Shown here in pieces: positions 3,211 to 57,191 of a stretch of DNA of 64,000 nt; within the stretch, counting starts at the first letter, position 1; each line of letters begins with the position of its first letter. The position numbers and the translations under genes were made by a program. The stretch lies in the NCBI GenBank assembly GCA_934454405.1, contig CAKSFN010000009.1, positions 30,323 to 94,322 of the forward strand, read 5' to 3'. The notes beneath the pieces were generated by a model, which saw only the letters and a program-made list of their open reading frames with translations, searched no databases and was not told where the DNA came from. This DNA is from an uncultured Eubacteriales bacterium. GTDB taxonomy: Bacteria; Bacillota; Clostridia; Oscillospirales; UBA644.

Positions 3211-4233
3211 TTACCGTTTTTCTTCAAACGGGTTTTCTTCTATCGACATATTCGCGAACGCGTTCAGCGTTTCGTCCGCGGTATGCCCCGCAAGAAGCTC
3301 AAAATACCCCTGCGACGCTATCATCGCGGCATTGTCTCCGCAGTAGCGCAGATCGGGCATAAAAAGGCTGACGCCTTTTTCTTCGCATTCTTTTTCAAGC
3401 CGCCTTCTCAACGTTCCGTTTGCCGCGACGCCGCCCGCAAGAACCAGCTTTTTGTTGAAACGCGCCGCCGCCTTTGTCGCATTGTCCGCCAGCACCTCCG
3501 TGACCGCCGCCGAAAACGAAGCCGCCACGTCGTGGACGTTTATTTCCGTCCCCGTCTGCTGCGCGTTGTGAACATAGTTTATAACCGCCGTTTTAATGCC
3601 GCTGAAACTGAAATCAAACTCGTTATCCGCAAAATGCGTGCGCGGAAATCTTATCGCGTTCGGGTTGCCCGTCGCCGCCGCTTTTTCGACTTTCGGACCT
3701 CCCGGATAACCGAGTCCGATAACTCTTGCCACTTTGTCAAAGCTCTCTCCCGCCGCGTCGTCGCGTGTCTTGCCCACGACCGTAAAAGTGGTGCGGTTTC
3801 CCACGTTTACTATATGAGAGTGCCCTCCCGAGACCACCAGCGCGGTGAAAGGTGGAGTTAAAGTGGGGTTTGTCAGATAGTTTGCGGCGATATGTCCCCG
3901 CAAATGATGAACCGGCACGATCGGCTTGCCTGCGGCGAGCGCGAGGCTTTTGCCGAAATTGACGCCGACGAGCAGCGCGCCGATAAGCCCCGGCGCATAG
4001 GTGACGGCTATCGCGTCGATATTTTGTATTCCGCCGACCGGCTCCAGAGCCTTTGCGACGAGCGAGGAGATCGCCTCGACATGGCACCTCGACGCAATTT
4101 CCGGGACGACCCCTCCGTAAAGCGTATGTATGTCTATCTGCGAAACGACCTCGTTTGATATGACCTTCACGCCGTTTTCGACGACCGCCGCCGCCGTTTC
4201 GTCACATGAACTTTCAATCCCCAAGACAAGCAT
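3211..4233 (-). CDS. tsaD: tRNA N6-adenosine threonylcarbamoyltransferase TsaD
   Basis: 340 aa. MLVLGIESSCDETAAAVV..., HHLRGHI and SGGHSH motifs are typical of Kae1/TsaD. Confidence 0.95.
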   Translation of the reverse strand: MLVLGIESSCDETAAAVVENGVKVISNEVVSQIDIHTLYGGVVPEIASRCHVEAISSLVAKALEPVGGIQNIDAIAVTYAPGLIGALLVGVNFGKSLALAAGKPIVPVHHLRGHIAANYLTNPTLTPPFTALVVSGGHSHIVNVGNRTTFTVVGKTRDDAAGESFDKVARVIGLGYPGGPKVEKAAATGNPNAIRFPRTHFADNEFDFSFSGIKTAVINYVHNAQQTGTEINVHDVAASFSAAVTEVLADNATKAAARFNKKLVLAGGVAANGTLRRRLEKECEEKGVSLFMPDLRYCGDNAAMIASQGYFELLAGHTADETLNAFANMSIEENPFEEKR

Positions 4234-4690: not shown

Positions 4691-5088
4691 TCGTTTATCC
4701 TTTCGGCGCATTTTTCATAGACTTCGGCGTCTCCGCCGTACGGGTCGGGGACGTCTTTTCCGCTCGGATCGAAAAGTTCCGTTTTCGATTCAAGCTCGGG
4801 GCGGCTCAAAACGAGCAGCTTTAAGTGATCCGCCGTCATCGCGTATATTCTGTCCGCTTCGGAAACCGCTTTAAGCGTCAGCGGCGTTGAAATATGACCT
4901 TCAAGCGTCGCGCCGTATTTCCCGACCGCTTTTTTTGCGTTTTCGCTTGCGGGCGAATGTCCGTCCGCGAACAGCCCCGCGCTGTCAACTTCAAAATCAA
5001 GCCCGTTGTCCTTTATCATTTTTTCCGCAAGTGCCTGCGCCATTGCGCTTCGACAGGTGTTACCCGTGCAAACAAAGAGAATTTTCAT
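4657..5088 (-). CDS. Low-molecular-weight protein tyrosine/arginine phosphatase (YwlE-like)
   Basis: 143 aa with the MKILFVCTGNTCRSAMAQAL CX5R(S) P-loop and DPYGG. Confidence 0.9.
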   Translation of the reverse strand: MKILFVCTGNTCRSAMAQALAEKMIKDNGLDFEVDSAGLFADGHSPASENAKKAVGKYGATLEGHISTPLTLKAVSEADRIYAMTADHLKLLVLSRPELESKTELFDPSGKDVPDPYGGDAEVYEKCAERINECLKKRFGLEE

Positions 5089-5101
5089 TTCACATCTCCG
5101 A

Positions 5102-7636
5102 TTATTTTGATTCGTACCATGTTTTGCCCGCGTTTACGTCAACGAGCAGGGGAACGGAAAGCTTTGCCGCGTGTTCCATTTCGTATTTGAGCAGATCTCT
5201 TATTTCTTTTTCCTTTTCGACGGGCGCTTCGACTATCAGTTCGTCGTGTATCTGCAATATGAGCCTTGCCCCCGTGCCCGATTTTTCGAGCCTGTCGAAA
5301 ACGCGAACCATCGCAAGCTTTATCAGATCTGCGGCGGTGCCCTGAATGGGCGTGTTGCGGCAGACTCTTGAAGCGAACGCCTGCAGCTGCCTGTTTTTGG
5401 CGTTTATGTCGGGAACATACCTGCGCCTTGCGAACATTGTTTCGACATAGCCCTTTTCTTTTGCGCTTTCGATAATTCCGTCCATATATTTTTTAACGCC
5501 GCTGTATGTGCGGAAATAGTTTTCGATATAGTTTTTGGCTTCTCTGAAAGATACTCCTATATCCTGCGAAAGGGAATATTCTCCTATGCCGTAAACTATG
5601 CCGAAATTGACCGCCTTCGCGCGTCTTCTGAGCTCGGGCGTCACCATCGCTTCGGGCAATCCGAAAACCTGCGCCGCCGTCGCCGTGTGTATGTCCCTGT
5701 TTTCGATGAACGCGCGTTTCATATTTTCGTCGTTTGCTATATGCGCAAGCACGCGCAGCTCAATCTGCGAATAGTCGGCGTCGATGAGAATATATCCGTC
5801 CCTTGCCTCGAACGCTTTTCTGAGCTGTCTGCCGAGCTCCGTTCTTACGGGAATGTTCTGCAGGTTCGGTTCTGTCGAACTGATCCTCCCCGTTTGCGTG
5901 ACCGTCTGAGTGAAAACGGTGTGTATTCTGCCGTCCTCGCCGATTTTTTTCAGAAGTCCGTCTATATATGTGGATTTGAGCTTTGAAAGTTTTCTGTATT
6001 CTATAACATTGTCGATTATCGGGTCTTCGCACGCGTCTCTGACCTTTTCGAGAATGTCGTTTGCCGTTGAATATCCCGTTTTCGTCTTTTTGCCCTTCGG
6101 ATAGGGCAGACGCATCTCGTCGAACAGCACCGCCGCAAGCTGCTTTGTTGAATTGATATTGAATTCGTGTCCCGCGTAAAGGTATATCGCCGCCGTACAG
6201 TCCGCTATCTCCGTGTCGAGTTTTTCGCCGAAGTTTTTCAGGAACTCCGTGTTTACCTCAAAACCGTCATGCTCCATGTTTGCAAGTACGGAGCAGAGCG
6301 GAAGTTCAATATCTCTGTAAAGCGCTGTTTGCCCGTTTTGTTCAAGTCTTGCTTCGAGATATCCTTCGACTTCGGGCAGATAGTAGCATTGCTCCGCTGC
6401 GGTGAGCGCGGAAACCGAAGAGCTTTCCTCTATCATTTCCGAAAGCGGATATTCGGAACGCGACGGGTTGAGAATATATCCCGCCAGCATAGTGTCGAAT
6501 TCAAGCGTTGCGGAGTATCCCGCCGCAAGAAGCTTTTTCAGCAGCGGCTTTCCGTCATGCGTGACTATCCGTTTGCCGTTTAACGCTTTAAGTGTTCTTT
6601 CGTTCAGCTCCGTGACGGAGACCCCGCCGTTCGTTTTTACGGCAAGCGTCTGTTCGTCGCAAAGAACAAAGAGCCTTTCTCCCGAGAGGCAGGCCGTGTC
6701 CGAGACCGCCGATACTTCAACCGCCGACGCTCTGATTTCTTTTTTCGCCTCCGCCGCGGCCGCCGCGTTTTCGTCCAGCCCGTAAAGCCTGATTATCCTT
6801 TTCAGGTCGTATTTCCGAAGCAGCGCAAGAAACTCTTCTTCGTTCATTTTCGGCGGCTGTATGTCTTTTTCCGTAATGTCGAGCAGGTCGCTTTTTCTGA
6901 TTATCCGTCCGAGTTCTCTTGACATAAACGCGCTGTCTCTTCCGTTTTCGAGCTTCGTTTTCAGCGCGCCCTTTATATTTTCGATATTGTCGTAAACGCC
7001 ATCAAGCGTTCCGTACTCTTTCAGCAGCGATACAGCCGTTTTTTCTCCTACGCCGGGAACTCCCGGTATATTGTCCGAAGAGTCGCCCATAAGCGCCTTG
7101 AGATCTATCAGGCTGTCTGTGCCAAGCCCGTATTTTTCCCTGATTTCCGCGGGAGTGTATATCTCGTCCTGCGTTCCGCCCTGTTTTGTTGTCGCAAGCT
7201 TGACGGTCACGTTTTCGTCGGCAAGCTGGAACGCGTCGCGGTCGCCGGTTATTATTATGCATTTTTCGCCGTCGTCCGAGCATTCGCGGCTGAGTATTCC
7301 TATAATATCGTCCGCTTCAAGTCCTTCTCGCTCTATTCTGACTATTCCGAGCGCGTCGAGCATCTGCTTGATTATCGGGAACTGCTCTCGAAGCTCCTCC
7401 GGCATGGGTTTGCGTCCCGCCTTGTAGTCTCTGAAAAGCTCGTGTCTGTACGTCGGCGCTTTCAGGTCGAACGCCGCCGCAACGCGGCACTCTCCCTCTT
7501 CTTTCATGTGTCTGTGCAGCGTTGTCAGAAAGCCGTAAAGCGCGTTTGTGTTGACGCCTTCCGAATTGGTCAGCGTTCTTATGCCGTAAAACGCGCGGTT
7601 CATTATGCTGTTGCCGTCGATGACGAGAAGTTTCAT
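5102..7636 (-). CDS. polA: DNA polymerase I
   Basis: 844 aa. It has an N-terminal 5'-3' exonuclease (LLVIDGNSIMNRAFY, GVPGVGEKTA) and family A polymerase motifs (DYSQIELRVLAH, RRRAKAVNFGIVYG, QIHDELIVE). Confidence 0.97.
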   Translation of the reverse strand: MKLLVIDGNSIMNRAFYGIRTLTNSEGVNTNALYGFLTTLHRHMKEEGECRVAAAFDLKAPTYRHELFRDYKAGRKPMPEELREQFPIIKQMLDALGIVRIEREGLEADDIIGILSRECSDDGEKCIIITGDRDAFQLADENVTVKLATTKQGGTQDEIYTPAEIREKYGLGTDSLIDLKALMGDSSDNIPGVPGVGEKTAVSLLKEYGTLDGVYDNIENIKGALKTKLENGRDSAFMSRELGRIIRKSDLLDITEKDIQPPKMNEEEFLALLRKYDLKRIIRLYGLDENAAAAAEAKKEIRASAVEVSAVSDTACLSGERLFVLCDEQTLAVKTNGGVSVTELNERTLKALNGKRIVTHDGKPLLKKLLAAGYSATLEFDTMLAGYILNPSRSEYPLSEMIEESSSVSALTAAEQCYYLPEVEGYLEARLEQNGQTALYRDIELPLCSVLANMEHDGFEVNTEFLKNFGEKLDTEIADCTAAIYLYAGHEFNINSTKQLAAVLFDEMRLPYPKGKKTKTGYSTANDILEKVRDACEDPIIDNVIEYRKLSKLKSTYIDGLLKKIGEDGRIHTVFTQTVTQTGRISSTEPNLQNIPVRTELGRQLRKAFEARDGYILIDADYSQIELRVLAHIANDENMKRAFIENRDIHTATAAQVFGLPEAMVTPELRRRAKAVNFGIVYGIGEYSLSQDIGVSFREAKNYIENYFRTYSGVKKYMDGIIESAKEKGYVETMFARRRYVPDINAKNRQLQAFASRVCRNTPIQGTAADLIKLAMVRVFDRLEKSGTGARLILQIHDELIVEAPVEKEKEIRDLLKYEMEHAAKLSVPLLVDVNAGKTWYESK

Positions 7637-43685: not shown

Positions 43686-44969
43686 TTATCTTATCTTTCT
43701 TCCTTCAAGATAGAATCTTTTGTCCTGCGCGTGCCCCATTGAAAATGTTTTTCGGGGAAGGGCGCCGTCGAGAACAACTGTTCTGAAAAGCTCGTCTTTT
43801 GTCATCGTCGGAACCAAAAATCCGATATTTTCGGGGTTTTTGCAGAGCCTTTCAACTTCTTCGTCGCCGTGAATATAATCAATCGTTCCTGCTTCTTTTT
43901 TCAGATAATCGTCAAGAAAAGCCTGAAGTGAACCGACCGCAAGGTTCGATTTTTCGTCCGTGACGGAAACGTACTGTTTGTTACCGTTTGAAAGCATTAC
44001 GAAAACTTGTCTGCCCTCAATGTCTTTCGGCGGCTGCGGCGTTATTGATATATCATTGAAAAAGCCTGCCAGAGCAACGGTTATTTTCGTTGCGTCCGCT
44101 CCGAAAACAACTCTGTGAATGGGCTCGAATTTGAGCGATTCGTCGTGCAGATTCACAACCTCGACAAGCGCGTAGCGCGCGGGGTGGCTTTCCGCTTCCT
44201 CGGGCGTGAGATTGCTTTTTATTTCGTTCCAGCACGTTTTTGCCGTTGCGAGCGAATGATTTCCGTCGCCGACGGCGAATACGAGCGGCTTTCTGCTTTT
44301 GAAACCGTATTTTTTATTGAAAACGGATTTGCTTCCGAGCCTGTCAAGCGCTTTCATCGCGTTTTGCGCGGCGTCGGTTCGAACTATCCGACCTTTGACG
44401 TGACCGCTCCGATGCATCAGGTCAAAATCATAAAGAAGCGCAAAGTCGGCGCTTTTTGCCGCGAGCGGTTCGATAACTGTTTTTTCGGGATCGTCGATGA
44501 GCAGCATAACGTGAGGAAATTCCAGCGGCGCGTTTTTTCGTATTTCCACTCTCGGCGGGATACGTTCAAGAACGGTTCCTTCCGTCGCCCGAACAAGCGT
44601 TTTCGCGCCTTTTTCAAAAGAATAATCTTCAAGATCCAGCTTTCCGATAAGTCCTTTTCTTACCGCCCCGTTTGAAAGGGTTCTTTCAAGGTAAATAAAG
44701 CTGTTGACAACGGTTTTGAATTTTCCCGTTTCAAGGTTTTCTTTCATTGTCGCGTTTACGGCTTCCGTTCTTTTTTCCTTTCCTCTTTTCGAAAGATATA
44801 TCTCCGGCAGCGTCATGGAAAGTGTCGAGGGCGCGCTTCCGACAAGTTTTTTCGTTCTTTTCCAGTAGTTTTCATCTGATGTGTACTGGTCGCAGGCGAC
44901 GACCGCCCATTTCATATATTCAAGACCGTCTGCGGGCAAAAGTATATCCGCGGGTGTAAATGTTTTCAT
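43686..44969 (-). CDS. DUF1015 family protein
   Basis: 427 aa. The N-terminus F.PADILLP... and the overall pattern (ACDQYTS, FAVGDGNHS) match DUF1015 as recalled. GGAGG RBS. Confidence 0.7.
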   Translation of the reverse strand: MKTFTPADILLPADGLEYMKWAVVACDQYTSDENYWKRTKKLVGSAPSTLSMTLPEIYLSKRGKEKRTEAVNATMKENLETGKFKTVVNSFIYLERTLSNGAVRKGLIGKLDLEDYSFEKGAKTLVRATEGTVLERIPPRVEIRKNAPLEFPHVMLLIDDPEKTVIEPLAAKSADFALLYDFDLMHRSGHVKGRIVRTDAAQNAMKALDRLGSKSVFNKKYGFKSRKPLVFAVGDGNHSLATAKTCWNEIKSNLTPEEAESHPARYALVEVVNLHDESLKFEPIHRVVFGADATKITVALAGFFNDISITPQPPKDIEGRQVFVMLSNGNKQYVSVTDEKSNLAVGSLQAFLDDYLKKEAGTIDYIHGDEEVERLCKNPENIGFLVPTMTKDELFRTVVLDGALPRKTFSMGHAQDKRFYLEGRKIR

Positions 44970-52222: not shown

Positions 52223-52292
52223 TTGCTCCGGGGTATTGAAAAAAATGAGGAAATGGTATATAATAGTTTTAATATCAATATATGAAAGATTT
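52199..52292. repeat. Direct repeat copy A (terminator loop, promoter, and the tatgaaagattt junction)
   Basis: Core 52230-52280 matches 53231-53281 at a constant offset of 1001 bp (about 45 of 51 identical by hand alignment). The 12-mer tatgaaagattt (52281-52292) recurs at 53309-53320. Confidence 0.8.
52236..52264 (+). promoter_or_regulatory. Sigma-A promoter (repeat copy A) reading into the pth leader
   Basis: TTGAAA (52236-52241), 17 nt spacer, TATAAT (52259-52264), with TGg extended -10. Confidence 0.7.
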
Positions 52293-52508
52293 ATTCTTAT
52301 CAATAGCGGCAACAAAAATTCGATTCAAAAATCGGATTGCGGCGAAGCGTATGTGCTTTTGTTAAACAACTTAAAAACCGCTGTTATGATTGATAAAAGT
52401 GAGAAGTTACAGTTCAAATTCGCTAAAAAACAGGAGAGTTTTTATATAAAATATTATGACATGGACTTGTGCCGAGTAATTTAGACGTTTTATAACCGGA
52501 GACGTGAT

Positions 52509-53093
52509 ATGAAAAATGTTGAATGGATTATTGTCGGATTAGGAAATCCGGAAGAAAGGCATTTAAATAATCGACATAATATAGGCTTTATTTGTGTGGA
52601 TCGGTTGGCTTCAAAACATTCCATAGCAATAAATGAATCTAAATTTGATTCTCTGATAGGGTACGGCAAAATAGGTGATGCTTCATGTATGCTTGTTAAA
52701 CCGCAAACATACATGAATAAAAGCGGGGAGGCTGTTGCGCAAATAATAAAAGCACTCGGACTCCATCTCACCGATTTAATTGTTATTGCCGATGACATTT
52801 CGCTTTCAATCGGAAGTTTAAGAATACGGTTGAGCGGCAGGTCAGGAGGACACAAAGGTTTAAACAGTATCATCGAATCGCTCGGAAGCATAGATTTTGC
52901 CAGAGTGAAAATCGGTGCAGGTATTCCACCGGAAGGTGTTGCTTTGGAAAAATGGGTTGTTTCGGACTTTGAAGATAAAATGGCACCGCTGCTTTTTGAA
53001 GTTATCGAAAATGCTTGTAAGGCTATTGAACTTATGGTTGACAGAAAATGTGATGTTGCAATGTCTCGCTATAATCATATCAACAAAGAATGA
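52509..53093 (+). CDS. pth: Peptidyl-tRNA hydrolase
   Basis: 194 aa with GLGNPE, NRHNIGF (catalytic His), KPQTYMNKSG, IADDISL and GGHKGL motifs. GGAGA RBS. It is markedly AT-rich compared with its neighbours. Confidence 0.9.
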   Translation: MKNVEWIIVGLGNPEERHLNNRHNIGFICVDRLASKHSIAINESKFDSLIGYGKIGDASCMLVKPQTYMNKSGEAVAQIIKALGLHLTDLIVIADDISLSIGSLRIRLSGRSGGHKGLNSIIESLGSIDFARVKIGAGIPPEGVALEKWVVSDFEDKMAPLLFEVIENACKAIELMVDRKCDVAMSRYNHINKE

Positions 53094-53192
53094 TAGAAAT
53101 GAACGGAATGGCTTTGATAATAATATACTGTTTAAATCATAGGAGTTTTAGGCAACTTACCGTTTAGCGTATTTCGACAAAACAGAGAATAT

Positions 53193-53222
53193 CCTCCGCT
53201 GTTTCGGCGGAGGGTCGTTTTT
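53193..53222 (+). terminator. Rho-independent terminator after pth (copy B module)
   Basis: cctccgc (53193-53199) pairs with gcggagg (53207-53213), then gtcgTTTTTT. Confidence 0.65.
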
Positions 53223-54759: not shown

Positions 54760-55554
54760 ATGAAAGATAAAACTGCAAAAAAAAGCGGAAAAGGATTGCG
54801 GATAATCTGCATTCTGATTATGATAGTCCTTCTCGGCGTTATCGGTTATTGCGTGTATAATATTATAACGATTCAAAATGAATATAACGAGAGCAAGAAC
54901 GCGTTTCAGGCCGTTGCCGATCTTGTAGTTAAGAAGATCAAGGTTCCCTCTTCGGACGACAAAGAAGCCGAAGTGACGGTTGAGATCGATTTTGAAGAAC
55001 TCAACAGACAAAACAAGGATATTTTCGCATGGATATTCTGCGACGGCACTCCTCTTAATTATCCCGTGGTCAAGGGCAAAAACAATGACCAGTATCTGCG
55101 TCACCTGATAGACGGCAGATACAACAACAGCGGCACGCTTTTTCTTGACTCCTCAAATTCAAAGGATCTTTCGGACGCGCACTCTTTCATCTTCGGACAT
55201 AATATGAAAAACGGAACGATGTTTGCGTGCCTGCTAAACTATTCAAAGAACGGATATTATGAGGAACATCCGTACATATATCTGTTCACGAAAGATGTGA
55301 ATTATCGGCTCGAAGTCTTTTCCGCTTATAAAACAACGGATTCCGACACGGAAAGCTACAAAAAGGATATCAAACGGAACGACGATATGACGGCATATTT
55401 CAACGGATTGAAAGGACGCTCCGATTTTTCGTGCGATATCGAGTATGCCCGCGGCGACAAGATTCTGACTCTTTCCACCTGCGAATACAGCCGCGCCTCC
55501 GGCAGATACGTTGTGCATTGTCTGATTAAGCCTGTTGAAAATGAGAATAAATAA
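54760..55554 (+). CDS. srtB: Class B sortase
   Basis: N-terminal TM, YPVVKGKNNDQYLRH, HSFIFGHNM (catalytic His), LTLSTCEYS (catalytic Cys) and an Arg near the C-terminus. Confidence 0.88.
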   Translation: MKDKTAKKSGKGLRIICILIMIVLLGVIGYCVYNIITIQNEYNESKNAFQAVADLVVKKIKVPSSDDKEAEVTVEIDFEELNRQNKDIFAWIFCDGTPLNYPVVKGKNNDQYLRHLIDGRYNNSGTLFLDSSNSKDLSDAHSFIFGHNMKNGTMFACLLNYSKNGYYEEHPYIYLFTKDVNYRLEVFSAYKTTDSDTESYKKDIKRNDDMTAYFNGLKGRSDFSCDIEYARGDKILTLSTCEYSRASGRYVVHCLIKPVENENK

Positions 55555-55743
55555 CGAAGCAAAAGGGATGTAAAAAAAGCCCAGACCGCAAAAAAGGCTG
55601 AAAAATACAAAAAAAGCAATGGCTTAAAAGATAAACAAAACGACTCAAAACAGCAATTTTTGTGTTTTTCCATAAAATAAGGTTTTAATACGCCTTTTTT
55701 GCTACGGGCGAATCTCACCTCTCGATGTATAAACATACACCAA

Positions 55744-56062
55744 GGCTGATGATGTCCGGACTCTTATCGCCCGACACAGGCTATTTTCGGTTATTTTCTC
55801 TCTTTTCGTTTTGGCGGGCGTCAGCCCGCCTGCGTCTCAAAAAGAAAAAATTCCTCGAAAATTTTTCTGTGTCGGGTGCGTGCAGTTTTTACGGTGCGGA
55901 TTTTTGTCATAACGACAAAGAAGCCGCCGTGAATACTGTCGTATTTGCAAGGCTTTTGCGAAAGTCAGGGCGAAAATCCGCCCGTTAAAACCGATGAGAG
56001 TTCGAAGATCATCAGCCATGGGTTTGATTCACCCATTCTGAACCTTTTTTCCTATCCCCAAC
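55744..56062 (+). ncRNA. Candidate structured RNA (independent sRNA or long structured srtB 3'UTR); not matched to any family I can recognise
   Basis: The region is non-coding and lies between convergent genes. Nested complementary segments: 55746-55755/56010-56019 (10 bp), 55770-55781/55869-55880 (12 bp with a plus-strand-only G-U), 55785-55792/55857-55864, GC hairpin 55815-55832, and hairpin 55893-55932. It ends at a plus-sense intrinsic terminator. Confidence 0.3.
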
Positions 56063-56107
56063 GGGGCTGTAAAAAAACTTGCGTTTTTTTACAGCCCCGT
56101 GTTTTTT
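56063..56107 (+). terminator. Strong intrinsic terminator, canonical in the plus orientation and also abutting the spoIIP stop
   Basis: ggggctgtaaaaaaa (56063-56077) pairs with tttttttacagcccc (56084-56098), followed by gtgTTTTTT (to 56107). Confidence 0.8.
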
Positions 56108-57191
56108 ACTGTTCACCGTCGAAATATGTTATCATAACATCTGCAAAATATTCGGCGGCGCGCTCCGCCTCCTCCTTTGCGTTGGCGTCCGAGCCGACTT
56201 CAAGCAGCATTGAGCCGTCCGTCAGATGTTGGTTGAATCTGCTGTTGCTGACTATCATCGGTCTCATCAGCGTCGGATAGAGTCTGTTCGCCGTGTCCTG
56301 CAAATGGATCGCCAGACAAAAATTGTTTTGCCAGGTCGGAAACTGATACGTCGCATTCCCCGCGCCGACAAGAAACATCAGCTGCGCGCAAGTCTCTCCG
56401 TTCAGCGTTGTGACTGTTTTATACCTTGTCCCGTCGCTTGCAAGCAGACAGTCCCTGTGTACGTCCAAAACCACTTTTATCGACGGATATTTTTGCTTGC
56501 AGGCGGTTATATCCGCATAAGAACTCGAATAAGAATGATTGTAGTCGAGGTCGTGTATCGTCGTTGAATGAATCACCGAATATCCCGCCGCCGACAGCCT
56601 CCGTTCGATGATATTGCCTATGCTTATCATATTTTTTTCGGGATCCTGCGTTCTGAATGTTTCGCTTTTGTCGTAACTTTCCCCGCTTCCTTCGTGATAA
56701 CATTCCGTCGTGTGGGTATGAACAATCAGTATCTGCGGCTCATCGCTTCCTTTTTTCGGGACGGCAGGCGGTTTTTCGGACAAAAGGGAAGAGATGTCAA
56801 AGTTTATTTTATGCTCGTTTATAACATAAATCCCCTTCGCGTTGTCCATATAGTCCGCTCCCTTTGAAAACCGCGCGACTATCGGATACGCGCCTTTTTT
56901 TTCATCTTCCTCCGTAACATAGCCGCCCTCGAGCCACGGGACATTCTCATCAGTTTGCTCCGAGCGAAACCTGTCGATCCTGTTCGCGTTTTCATCAGTC
57001 CCTTCGTATGCTTTATAATCTCTCGAAATATCTGCGGAAAACTCCCTGAACTTCATCTCCGTTTCCGCAACGATATCCATTCCCGATGTTGCAAGCAATA
57101 ACGCGGACAGCGCGGAAAAGCAGACCGCTGTTGCCGCAATATTGATTTTCGGATTTCTCATAACGCTGAAAAACTTCCGCACTTTTAACAC
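56106..57191 (-). CDS. spoIIP: Stage II sporulation protein P (SpoIIP)
   Basis: N-terminal TM, ILIVHTHTTECY, and a C-terminal amidase-like region (LDVHRD, LFLVGAGN). It lies downstream of gpr as in Bacillus. The start may be internal (GTG 57182 or ATG further in). Confidence 0.88.
   Translation of the reverse strand: MLKVRKFFSVMRNPKINIAATAVCFSALSALLLATSGMDIVAETEMKFREFSADISRDYKAYEGTDENANRIDRFRSEQTDENVPWLEGGYVTEEDEKKGAYPIVARFSKGADYMDNAKGIYVINEHKINFDISSLLSEKPPAVPKKGSDEPQILIVHTHTTECYHEGSGESYDKSETFRTQDPEKNMISIGNIIERRLSAAGYSVIHSTTIHDLDYNHSYSSSYADITACKQKYPSIKVVLDVHRDCLLASDGTRYKTVTTLNGETCAQLMFLVGAGNATYQFPTWQNNFCLAIHLQDTANRLYPTLMRPMIVSNSRFNQHLTDGSMLLEVGSDANAKEEAERAAEYFADVMITYFDGEQ

Follow-up and report, generated by a model that had tools for sequence, protein, structure and literature searches.

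A structured, very probably mobile repeat between the convergent sortase and spoIIP genes of an uncultured Eubacteriales bacterium

The 64,000-nt stretch of contig CAKSFN010000009.1 analysed here, called the window throughout, comes from an uncultured Eubacteriales bacterium and contains a long gap between two convergent genes, one encoding a sortase and the other SpoIIP. A reading made earlier from the sequence alone had placed the sortase stop at 55554 on the plus strand and the spoIIP stop at 56106 on the minus strand, and both flanking reading frames are as it gave them. Its name for the sortase gene, srtB, holds as far as the Sortase domain in Pfam is concerned, although the class B label has as its only basis the names of 37%-identical homologues. 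Positions 55565-56098, inside the gap, are very probably one copy of a non-autonomous, non-coding mobile repeat that resembles a miniature inverted-repeat transposable element (MITE). The features of the locus are collected in Table 1.

The alleles of this locus were compared among contigs that encode exactly the window's sortase protein. The window and the contigs L001 and L004 carry a filled allele, with a gap of 551 bp, while the contigs L002 and L003, whose flanks are 99.2-99.5% identical to those of the window, carry an empty allele in which a small bidirectional terminator occupies a gap of 41 bp. The empty site reads CGAAGCAAAA-GGGAGAAGC-CGAAAA-GCTTCTCCC-GTGTTTTTT, and its hairpin is followed on the plus strand by a U-run and on the minus strand by UUUUGCUU. 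The junctions in the window read CGAAGCAAAA-GGGA/TGTAAAAAAAGCCC ... TTTTTTTACAGC/CCC-GTGTTTTTT, with the slashes at the limits of the insertion, so that 527 nt occupy the place of 17 nt of host hairpin and the host U-tract is retained. Because the GGGA...CCC of the host coincides with the GGGG...CCCC ends of the element, the event is equally readable as an exact swap of the element for a 24-nt hairpin. Two outgroup contigs, L138 and L139, whose sortase is 80% identical, keep the synteny of sortase and spoIIP and carry a homologous 41-bp terminator (GGGAGAAACCG-ATTTTTT-CGGATTCTCCC-ATATTTTTT), which makes the empty state ancestral.

The same unit of about 530 nt was found in 14 other contigs with unrelated flanks (L094, L106 and L124-L135). 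Twelve of these are metagenome loci found with a 34-mer specific to the window's version of the core described below, and L094 and L106 come from one metagenome-assembled genome (MAG), UMGS964. Complete copies on complete contigs align to the window from 55562 or 55565 to 56098 or 56107, and none of the other copies aligns to the window's flanking genes. Four copies are cut by contig ends (L094, L126, L127, L130), three diverge before the right end (L106, L125, L132), and two share one 82-kb contig. The left end of the unit reads GGGG[A/C]TGTAAAAAAAGCCCAGACC and the right end GGGGCTGTAAAAAAAC-TTGC-GTTTTTTTACAGCCCC; the terminal inverted repeat is 15 nt long, with the family consensus GGGG[A/C]TGTAAAAAAA, and its right copy pairs with an adjacent internal copy to form a hairpin. 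A same-strand open reading frame (ORF) of 141-657 codons stops 2-37 nt before the element in seven of the eight distinct left contexts, and a T-run lies within a few bases of the right end in four of the six right contexts. Since the T-run in the window is demonstrably the host's, the element occupies the position of a terminator hairpin and brings its own hairpin with it.

Some of these contexts have mosaic flanks: the left flank of L106 is that of L124 and its right flank is that of L132, and L128 and L134 share a left flank while their right ends differ. Such combinations may come from recombination between copies or from chimeric assembly across the repeat, and the count of independent contexts is therefore only approximate. 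Searches of the 64-kb window for a second copy by blastn, nhmmer and a terminal-repeat pattern found none, and the matches at 44655 and 63984 are chance.

The interior of the unit belongs to a larger family. A BLAST search with the gap gave matches of about 71% identity over window positions ~55811-55993 in a fecal contig and in Vescimonas fastidiosa, where the matching sequence is an unannotated spacer between convergent genes. The 280-nt core in the window (55740-56021) is about 71% identical to a TA-flanked repeat of about 280 bp, the major family. An exact-pattern scan of species-representative genomes for a conserved 21-mer returned at least 115 stretches, and a profile search confirmed the repeat at no fewer than 111 loci in at least 48 assemblies of Oscillospiraceae type from the gut. 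These assemblies carry from one copy to seven or more each, often at contig ends, and include Dysosmobacter, Oscillibacter, Vescimonas, CAG:413 and many Oscillospiraceae.

Copies of the major family are 273-281 bp long, are bounded by TA/CCATCGATTGACAAGGGCAAACA ... TGTCTGCCCTTGTCAATCGATGG/TA, and have terminal inverted repeats of 24-28 bp. TA is present on both flanks in 42 of 68 copies, and the target is weakly palindromic and AT-rich; the flanking TA is indistinguishable from an extended inverted repeat, and no duplication longer than TA was found in the copies. They are intergenic and occur in all four orientations of the flanking genes without orientation bias, which rules out a fixed gene association or a riboswitch-like placement. 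Hairpins were ruled out as the targets of this family, as its flanks show no complementarity beyond that of mismatched controls.

A profile built from 64 copies of the major family, with the window left out, gave a single match in the window, at 55768-55993 (E = 5e-42). This match covers profile positions 28-255 of 287, and positions 1-27 and 256-287 do not align. The interior is thus common to both sub-families, and the closing helix and the termini are not: the terminal repeats of the major family (TA/CCATCGATTGACAAGG...) are absent from the window core, which has a different closing helix of 30 bp. By its interior homology and the helices P2 to P6 that it can form, the window core is a member of the ~280-bp repeat family.

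Various internal deletions occur among the major-family copies. In V. fastidiosa plasmid pMM35_02 (L140, 6001-6052) a 52-nt hairpin consists of the two terminal repeats alone, and in V. coprocola plasmid pMM50_01 (L141, 1460-1502) a 43-nt copy consists of 35 nt of the left end and, directly after them, the final 8 nt of the right; both derivatives are followed by TAGAAA. Three species-level MAGs share one internally deleted copy at an orthologous site, with few substitutions (L013 4073-4267, L088 3380-3574, L110 5215-5409), so this insertion predates their divergence. In the record MT837146, labelled "Bacteriophage sp." (L008), a copy at 4861-5199 has a 54-nt insert placed precisely within the GGCGGGC/GCCCGCC hairpin loop. 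The flanks of this record are the same as the chromosome of Vescimonas sanitatis (L061), and it is probably bacterial DNA. A phage origin of the repeat was rejected on these Vescimonas flanks and on the lack of any match in IMG/VR. Finally, "cleanbin" MAGs labelled as Bacteroidaceae, Barnesiella, Agathobacter, Pseudobutyrivibrio and Ruminococcus bicirculans have one to seven copies each (L015-L017, L022, L027-L029, L031, L032, L035, L037, L040, L047 and others). For a repeat otherwise confined to Oscillospiraceae, these carriers suggest mislabelled or contaminated bins, or horizontal spread.

The fold of the element is conserved among its copies. The minimum free energy of the 553-nt gap is -221.4 kcal/mol, compared to -136.4 +/- 6.7 in dinucleotide shuffles (z = -12.8), and the minus strand folds equally well (z = -12.6). 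The sequence-only reading had listed a set of complementary segments on the plus strand; all of them are present, although each helix coordinate was 2 nt too high. A consensus structure on 67 full-length copies is a three-way junction with a closing helix P1, a left branch P2 and a right branch P3-P6, and the left branch is capped by a nearly invariant GGCGGGC-GYCA-GCCCGCC hairpin, P2b. A long-range pairing proposed for the right branch, the GCGGATTTT/AAAATCCGC option, turned out to be the family-conserved helix P4, and the competing local "bulged hairpin" is not conserved in the family. The window copy can form all of P2-P6. In the left arm of the 534-nt unit, which is A-rich, the interior of the hairpin differs among copies and its stem is kept, 1 bp shorter on both sides in L128, L131 and L134.

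Covariation in these helices was scored on copies that were fished out with an exact motif and are paralogues on an unknown tree, against shuffles uncorrected for relatedness: standard pairs form in 96.4% of cells (shuffled 91.4%, slid controls 35-42%), 36 of 71 pairs are changed on both sides (shuffled 15.5 +/- 2.5, with 0 of 500 shuffles reaching the observed number, and slid controls 14-19), and the covariation score is 0.186 (shuffled 0.097, slid controls 0.03-0.06). Changes on both sides are found in six of nine pairs in P2, eight of 12 in P4 and four of five in P5. P2 and P4 have several double substitutions between the window sub-family and the rest, including flips from A-U to U-A. Homologous copies elsewhere thus have conserved and covarying helices, and the suggestion of a structured non-coding element stands.

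Table 1. Features of the sortase/spoIIP locus and of the element within it, in window coordinates.
Feature	Coordinates	Strand	Remarks
Sortase gene	54760..55554	+	ORF of 264 aa; Pfam PF04203 (Sortase) on the identical protein
Residual host 3' untranslated region (UTR) CGAAGCAAAA	55555..55564	+	Upstream of the insertion; same in filled and empty alleles
Inserted unit, very probably mobile, 534 nt	55565..56098	+	Present in the window, L001, L004; absent from L002, L003 and outgroups L138, L139
Left terminal inverted repeat GGGATGTAAAAAAA	55565..55578	+	93% complementary to 56084-56097; left boundary in every copy
Left-arm hairpin GCAAAAAAGGC/GCCTTTTTTGC	55588..55702	+	55588-55598 with 55692-55702; inner stem 55600-55613/55657-55670
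Core domain	55740..56021	+	Three-way junction closed by P1, a 30-bp helix (55740-55769 with 55992-56021, 30 nt, 83% complementary) that includes GGCTGATGAT (55744-55753) with ATCATCAGCC (56008-56017)
Core left branch	55768..55878	+	P2, CGCCCGACACAG (55768-55779) with CTGTGTCGGGTG (55867-55878), including the wobble G55769-U55877; ATTTTCGG (55783-55790) with TCGAAAAT (55855-55862); U-rich/A-rich internal pairing; P2b cap GGCGGGC-GTCA-GCCCGCC (55813-55830)
Core right branch, P3 and P4	55885..55991	+	P3 55885-55893/55983-55991; P4 ~55896-55916/55960-55981, with GCGGATTTT (55896-55904) paired to AAAATCCGC (55973-55981); consensus structure mapped onto the window sequence
Core right branch, P5 and P6	55885..55991	+	P5 55920-55925/55951-55956; P6 55929-55936/55941-55948; mapped likewise
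Segment TTTTTTCCTATCCCC	56045..56059	+	Can pair with the left terminal repeat (unit closed as a rod; with 55565-55585 in the minimum-free-energy fold of the whole unit) or, alternatively, with the terminal hairpin's 5' arm
Terminal hairpin of the element	56061..56100	+	The right terminal inverted repeat (56084-56098) forms its 3' arm; other copies also have the hairpin on their right
Host U-tract GTGTTTTTT	56099..56107	+	From the ancestral terminator; in empty alleles and outgroups it directly follows their own hairpin
spoIIP gene	56106-57191	-	ORF of 361 aa; Pfam PF07454 (SpoIIP); convergent with the sortase gene

The gap had been called non-coding, and this was borne out. ORFs of 60-126 aa do overlap it, and in L001 gene prediction calls a 79-aa product, but none of the gap ORFs has a Pfam match above cut-off and no reading frame is conserved among the repeat copies, which are separated by 1-nt indels. 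The element matches no known RNA family either: the scan with Rfam 15 (4227 families) that the earlier reading had proposed gave no hit at the gathering threshold in the whole window or in the homologous loci L007 and L008. Permissive scans of the gap and of a major-family copy gave only chance-level hits (E >= 0.2), those of the gap being to miRNA and snoRNA families, and the Rfam scans contained no group II intron or ribozyme signature. A hammerhead-like CUGAUGA in P1 lacks both a matching stem II and GAAA, does not occur in the major family and is negative in Rfam; we regard it as chance. A full-text search of the literature found no description of the repeat.

The wobble pairs in the helices had been taken as a sign that the plus strand is the one that folds. 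This argument failed, as a structure derived from the minus strand shows the same excess of G-U pairs (419 vs 72), while the pairs common to the plus and minus predictions give 58 vs 35 in the same test. Consensus energies are -69.1 kcal/mol for the plus and -74.6 kcal/mol for the minus strand, and the single-sequence energies are equal. Neither wobble pairs nor folding energy are therefore informative about the strand. The plus strand is favoured only by the orientation bias of the 530-nt sub-family, which would be co-transcribed with the upstream gene.

The hairpin at 56061-56100 is, as had been proposed, the only strong terminator on the plus strand after the sortase gene. A terminator scan reports it as a perfect 18-bp stem with the 4-nt loop TTGC followed by GTTTTTT, a GC-rich hairpin directly before a U-run, which is the form of an intrinsic terminator. 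The hairpin belongs to the element and stands directly before the host U-tract, which overlaps the spoIIP stop codon (56106-56108) and now serves the element's hairpin. With the sortase stop codon on one side and the only plus-strand terminator on the other, the element most likely forms a long structured 3' UTR of the sortase mRNA and supplies its terminator. The earlier interpretation had left open either such a UTR or an independent small RNA (sRNA) of about 350 nt. The UTR reading stands as the most likely one, and the locus-specific sRNA does not: the unit is 534 nt long, is absent at this locus from conspecific strains and related species, and is a dispersed multi-copy repeat. No promoter-like site was found in the gap, so that of the marks of an independent trans-acting sRNA gene only the terminator is present, and the syntenic locus is empty in some strains and in relatives. 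The alternative pairings of TTTTTTCCTATCCCC could conceivably act as a switch.

Several other observations were made around this locus. In L136, whose SrtB is 84% identical, the spacer between sortase and spoIIP (3802-4036) is an unrelated sequence of 235 bp with its own hairpins and a called ORF of 36 aa. As L136 is the closest relative and its spacer is unrelated to the repeat, the sortase/spoIIP spacer appears to be a hot spot for change. The contigs L005, L006 and L004 end 87, 196 and 498 nt past the sortase stop, that is, inside the element; such breaks would follow from an element present in several copies per genome, or from filled and empty alleles occurring together in one sample. A segment of 911 bp at window ~52283-53193 (L001 2524-3434) is missing from L002 and L003, where its flanks are 95-99% identical, and is present in L136. 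The gene for peptidyl-tRNA hydrolase lies in it, as does part of an ORF of 79 aa; a strain-variable essential gene at this locus is odd. A search of species genomes anchored on SpoIIP yielded no confirmed relative.

Altogether, the unit has much of what defines a MITE: it is non-coding and shorter than 600 bp (534 nt), it has terminal inverted repeats, and it is found in many copies with presence and absence between strains. In the window it has inserted into the small bidirectional intrinsic terminator of the convergent sortase and spoIIP genes, replacing a 24-nt hairpin (17 nt net), and it would be mobilised in trans by an enzyme encoded elsewhere. For the TA-flanked family the obvious candidate is an IS630/Tc1-mariner-like enzyme, because TA stands on both flanks of so many copies (42/68) and the target is weakly palindromic and AT-rich; against this candidate, terminal variants with TGCC/GGCA fit pairing better than TA duplication, and no autonomous element was seen. 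The 530-nt unit might, speculatively, take a different route that recognises or exploits hairpins, given its lack of duplication, the G/C-rich microhomology at the hairpin base and its strict position after stop codons. The fold itself may be selected in a single-stranded form (a transcript or a transposition intermediate), in the UTRs of a parental insertion sequence (IS) or other autonomous element, or for an RNA role in the host. The sortase mRNA would gain a highly structured 3' UTR of about 540 nt ending at the element's hairpin and the host U-run, and spoIIP, on the other strand, would be left with a hairpin that no U-run follows in place of its canonical hairpin-plus-U terminator, except if the complete unit forms a rod before the ancestral UUUUGCUU.

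Not everything fits a mobile repeat of this kind. No target-site duplication is visible when the filled and empty alleles of the window are compared, and this insertion is the sole readable one. For the major family the only candidate for an empty site, L012 compared with L073, is too diverged for its junction to be read. A relative with the same ends and a transposase was found neither in at least 111 eight-kb loci nor in three Vescimonas replicons. What is conserved between the sub-families is the interior and not the termini, the reverse of classical MITE families. Compensatory changes occur on short branches too, which could mean per-copy selection for a host function; changes that preserve pairing exceed those that break it even there, though these branches are not assignable to the time after insertion. 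Lastly, the mosaic flanks mean that some of the metagenome contexts may be assembly chimeras.

These points give room to other explanations. The fold could have its origin in an as yet unseen autonomous insertion sequence, in the untranslated parts at the two ends of its transposase mRNA (5' leader, 3' end), with the ~280-bp elements as its internal-deletion derivatives and the fold selected in the parent rather than in the miniature copies. We consider this possible, if on the unlikely side. The terminal inverted repeats of 24-28 bp, the TA on both flanks (42/68) in a weakly palindromic AT-rich target, as in IS630/Tc1-mariner insertion, the two branches of the junction as independent left and right halves, and the series of deletion derivatives all speak for it, but the at least 111 loci yielded no copy whose halves are separated by a long insert, the TGCC/GGCA variants fit pairing and not TA duplication, and the window sub-family has different termini and no duplication. 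Candidates for an autonomous partner were also rejected: no pairs of terminal repeats lie 0.7-3 kb apart, the solo end in L078 is a truncated copy, and the matches on Vescimonas plasmids are deletion remnants. That the copies are instead genuine structured RNA genes or modules of one family with a role in the cell (for instance a scaffold that binds proteins, or a stabiliser or regulator in 3' UTRs) on different mobile vehicles, with the fold as the selected product, seems distinctly unlikely. An interior about 71% identical and rich in compensatory pairs, shared by sub-families with completely different termini, would suit such a module, as would the excess of pairing-preserving changes on short branches, the single copy kept in some genomes, and the strict orientation of the 530-nt sub-family downstream of genes, where it would be co-transcribed. 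It is less easily squared with the absence from the locus in conspecific strains and in sister species, a copy number that runs from one to at least seven with many internally deleted copies, the lack of orientation bias relative to genes in the major family, the lack of a promoter, and two strands that fold equally well.

Movement through a folded single strand, either as an RNA intermediate or as single-stranded DNA (ssDNA) handled by an HUH-type enzyme or a group-II-like retroelement, with terminator hairpins as targets, would account for the missing target duplication, for the exact hairpin-for-hairpin swap with its GGGA/CCC microhomology to the GGGG...CCCC ends, for the orientation-specific position right after stop codons and for a structure conserved along the whole unit. 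Since the Rfam scans show no sign of a group II intron or ribozyme, the 8-kb windows inspected around the copies revealed neither a reverse transcriptase nor an HUH gene, and the major family does not sit in hairpin contexts, we rate this as very unlikely. The overlapping ORFs and the called 79-aa product are what a small protein-coding gene would offer, and an AT-rich spacer may be self-complementary by chance, but both ideas are exceedingly improbable and are refuted by the z-score of -12.8 against shuffles, the covariation in homologous copies, the unconserved frame with its 1-nt indels and the absence of Pfam matches above cut-off. A bolder reading, which we think unlikely, is that the core is a functional RNA or ssDNA module carried by at least two unrelated mobile vehicles and that its 530-nt form, which brings a terminator hairpin of its own, spreads by taking the place of host terminator hairpins. 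If true, the 530-nt form would amount to a mobile 3'-UTR cassette that moves by a route so far undescribed for bacterial repeats.

The MITE-like repeat, which we prefer, has practical consequences for annotation. Hundreds of short "hypothetical" ORFs, "structured intergenic regions" and many contig breaks in MAGs of gut Clostridia probably come from it, and a model of the repeat would tidy up these annotations. The insertion alters the 3' ends of a sortase gene and a sporulation gene differently between strains, and is thus a natural experiment on terminator replacement and 3'-UTR structure. The family also reverses the usual MITE pattern, with a conserved and covarying interior and variable ends. 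One sub-family appears to target terminator hairpins without duplication which, if real, would point to an uncharacterised mobilisation mechanism in a poorly cultured clade.

We file the element as a structured MITE-like repeat with a conserved branched interior, of which one sub-family is a terminator-replacing 3'-UTR cassette. Its nearest likeness is to MITEs and other structured repeats such as the Correia elements of Neisseria, the pneumococcal RUP and the enterobacterial ERIC, which are also short, non-coding and multi-copy with terminal inverted repeats, are intergenic and polymorphic between strains, have internal deletions, yield stable hairpins on co-transcription, and can provide or change terminators; RUP and Correia elements share the TA flanks of the major family as well. 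Unlike these, the window insertion has no duplication, which is also atypical for DDE-type MITEs, and it removed some of the target hairpin; conservation lies in a branched, covarying interior and not in the termini, and there are two sub-families with unrelated ends, for which the source of transposase was not found. The REP, BIME and REPIN repeats (RAYT, TnpA-REP) resemble the element in being hairpin repeats just after stop codons and between convergent genes, in lacking target duplication and in acting on the 3' ends of mRNAs. REP units are palindromes of 20-40 nt (about 35 nt) and REPINs are about 100 nt, with a conserved GTAG-type head, whereas the element is 534 nt with a 280-nt three-way junction, and neither its size nor its architecture is that of a REP/REPIN-RAYT unit. 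Class C (IIC) group II introns, like the 530-nt unit, insert at terminator stem-loops in a specific orientation and without duplication, but the element has no Rfam group II match, no GUGYG...AY ends and no intron-encoded protein, is too small, and replaces the hairpin instead of inserting after it. The large RNAs raiA, OLE, ROOL, GOLLD and HEARO in Rfam are comparable in size range, multi-helix architecture and covariation; the element differs from them in being multi-copy, strain-variable, bounded by inverted repeats and free of any fixed gene neighbourhood.

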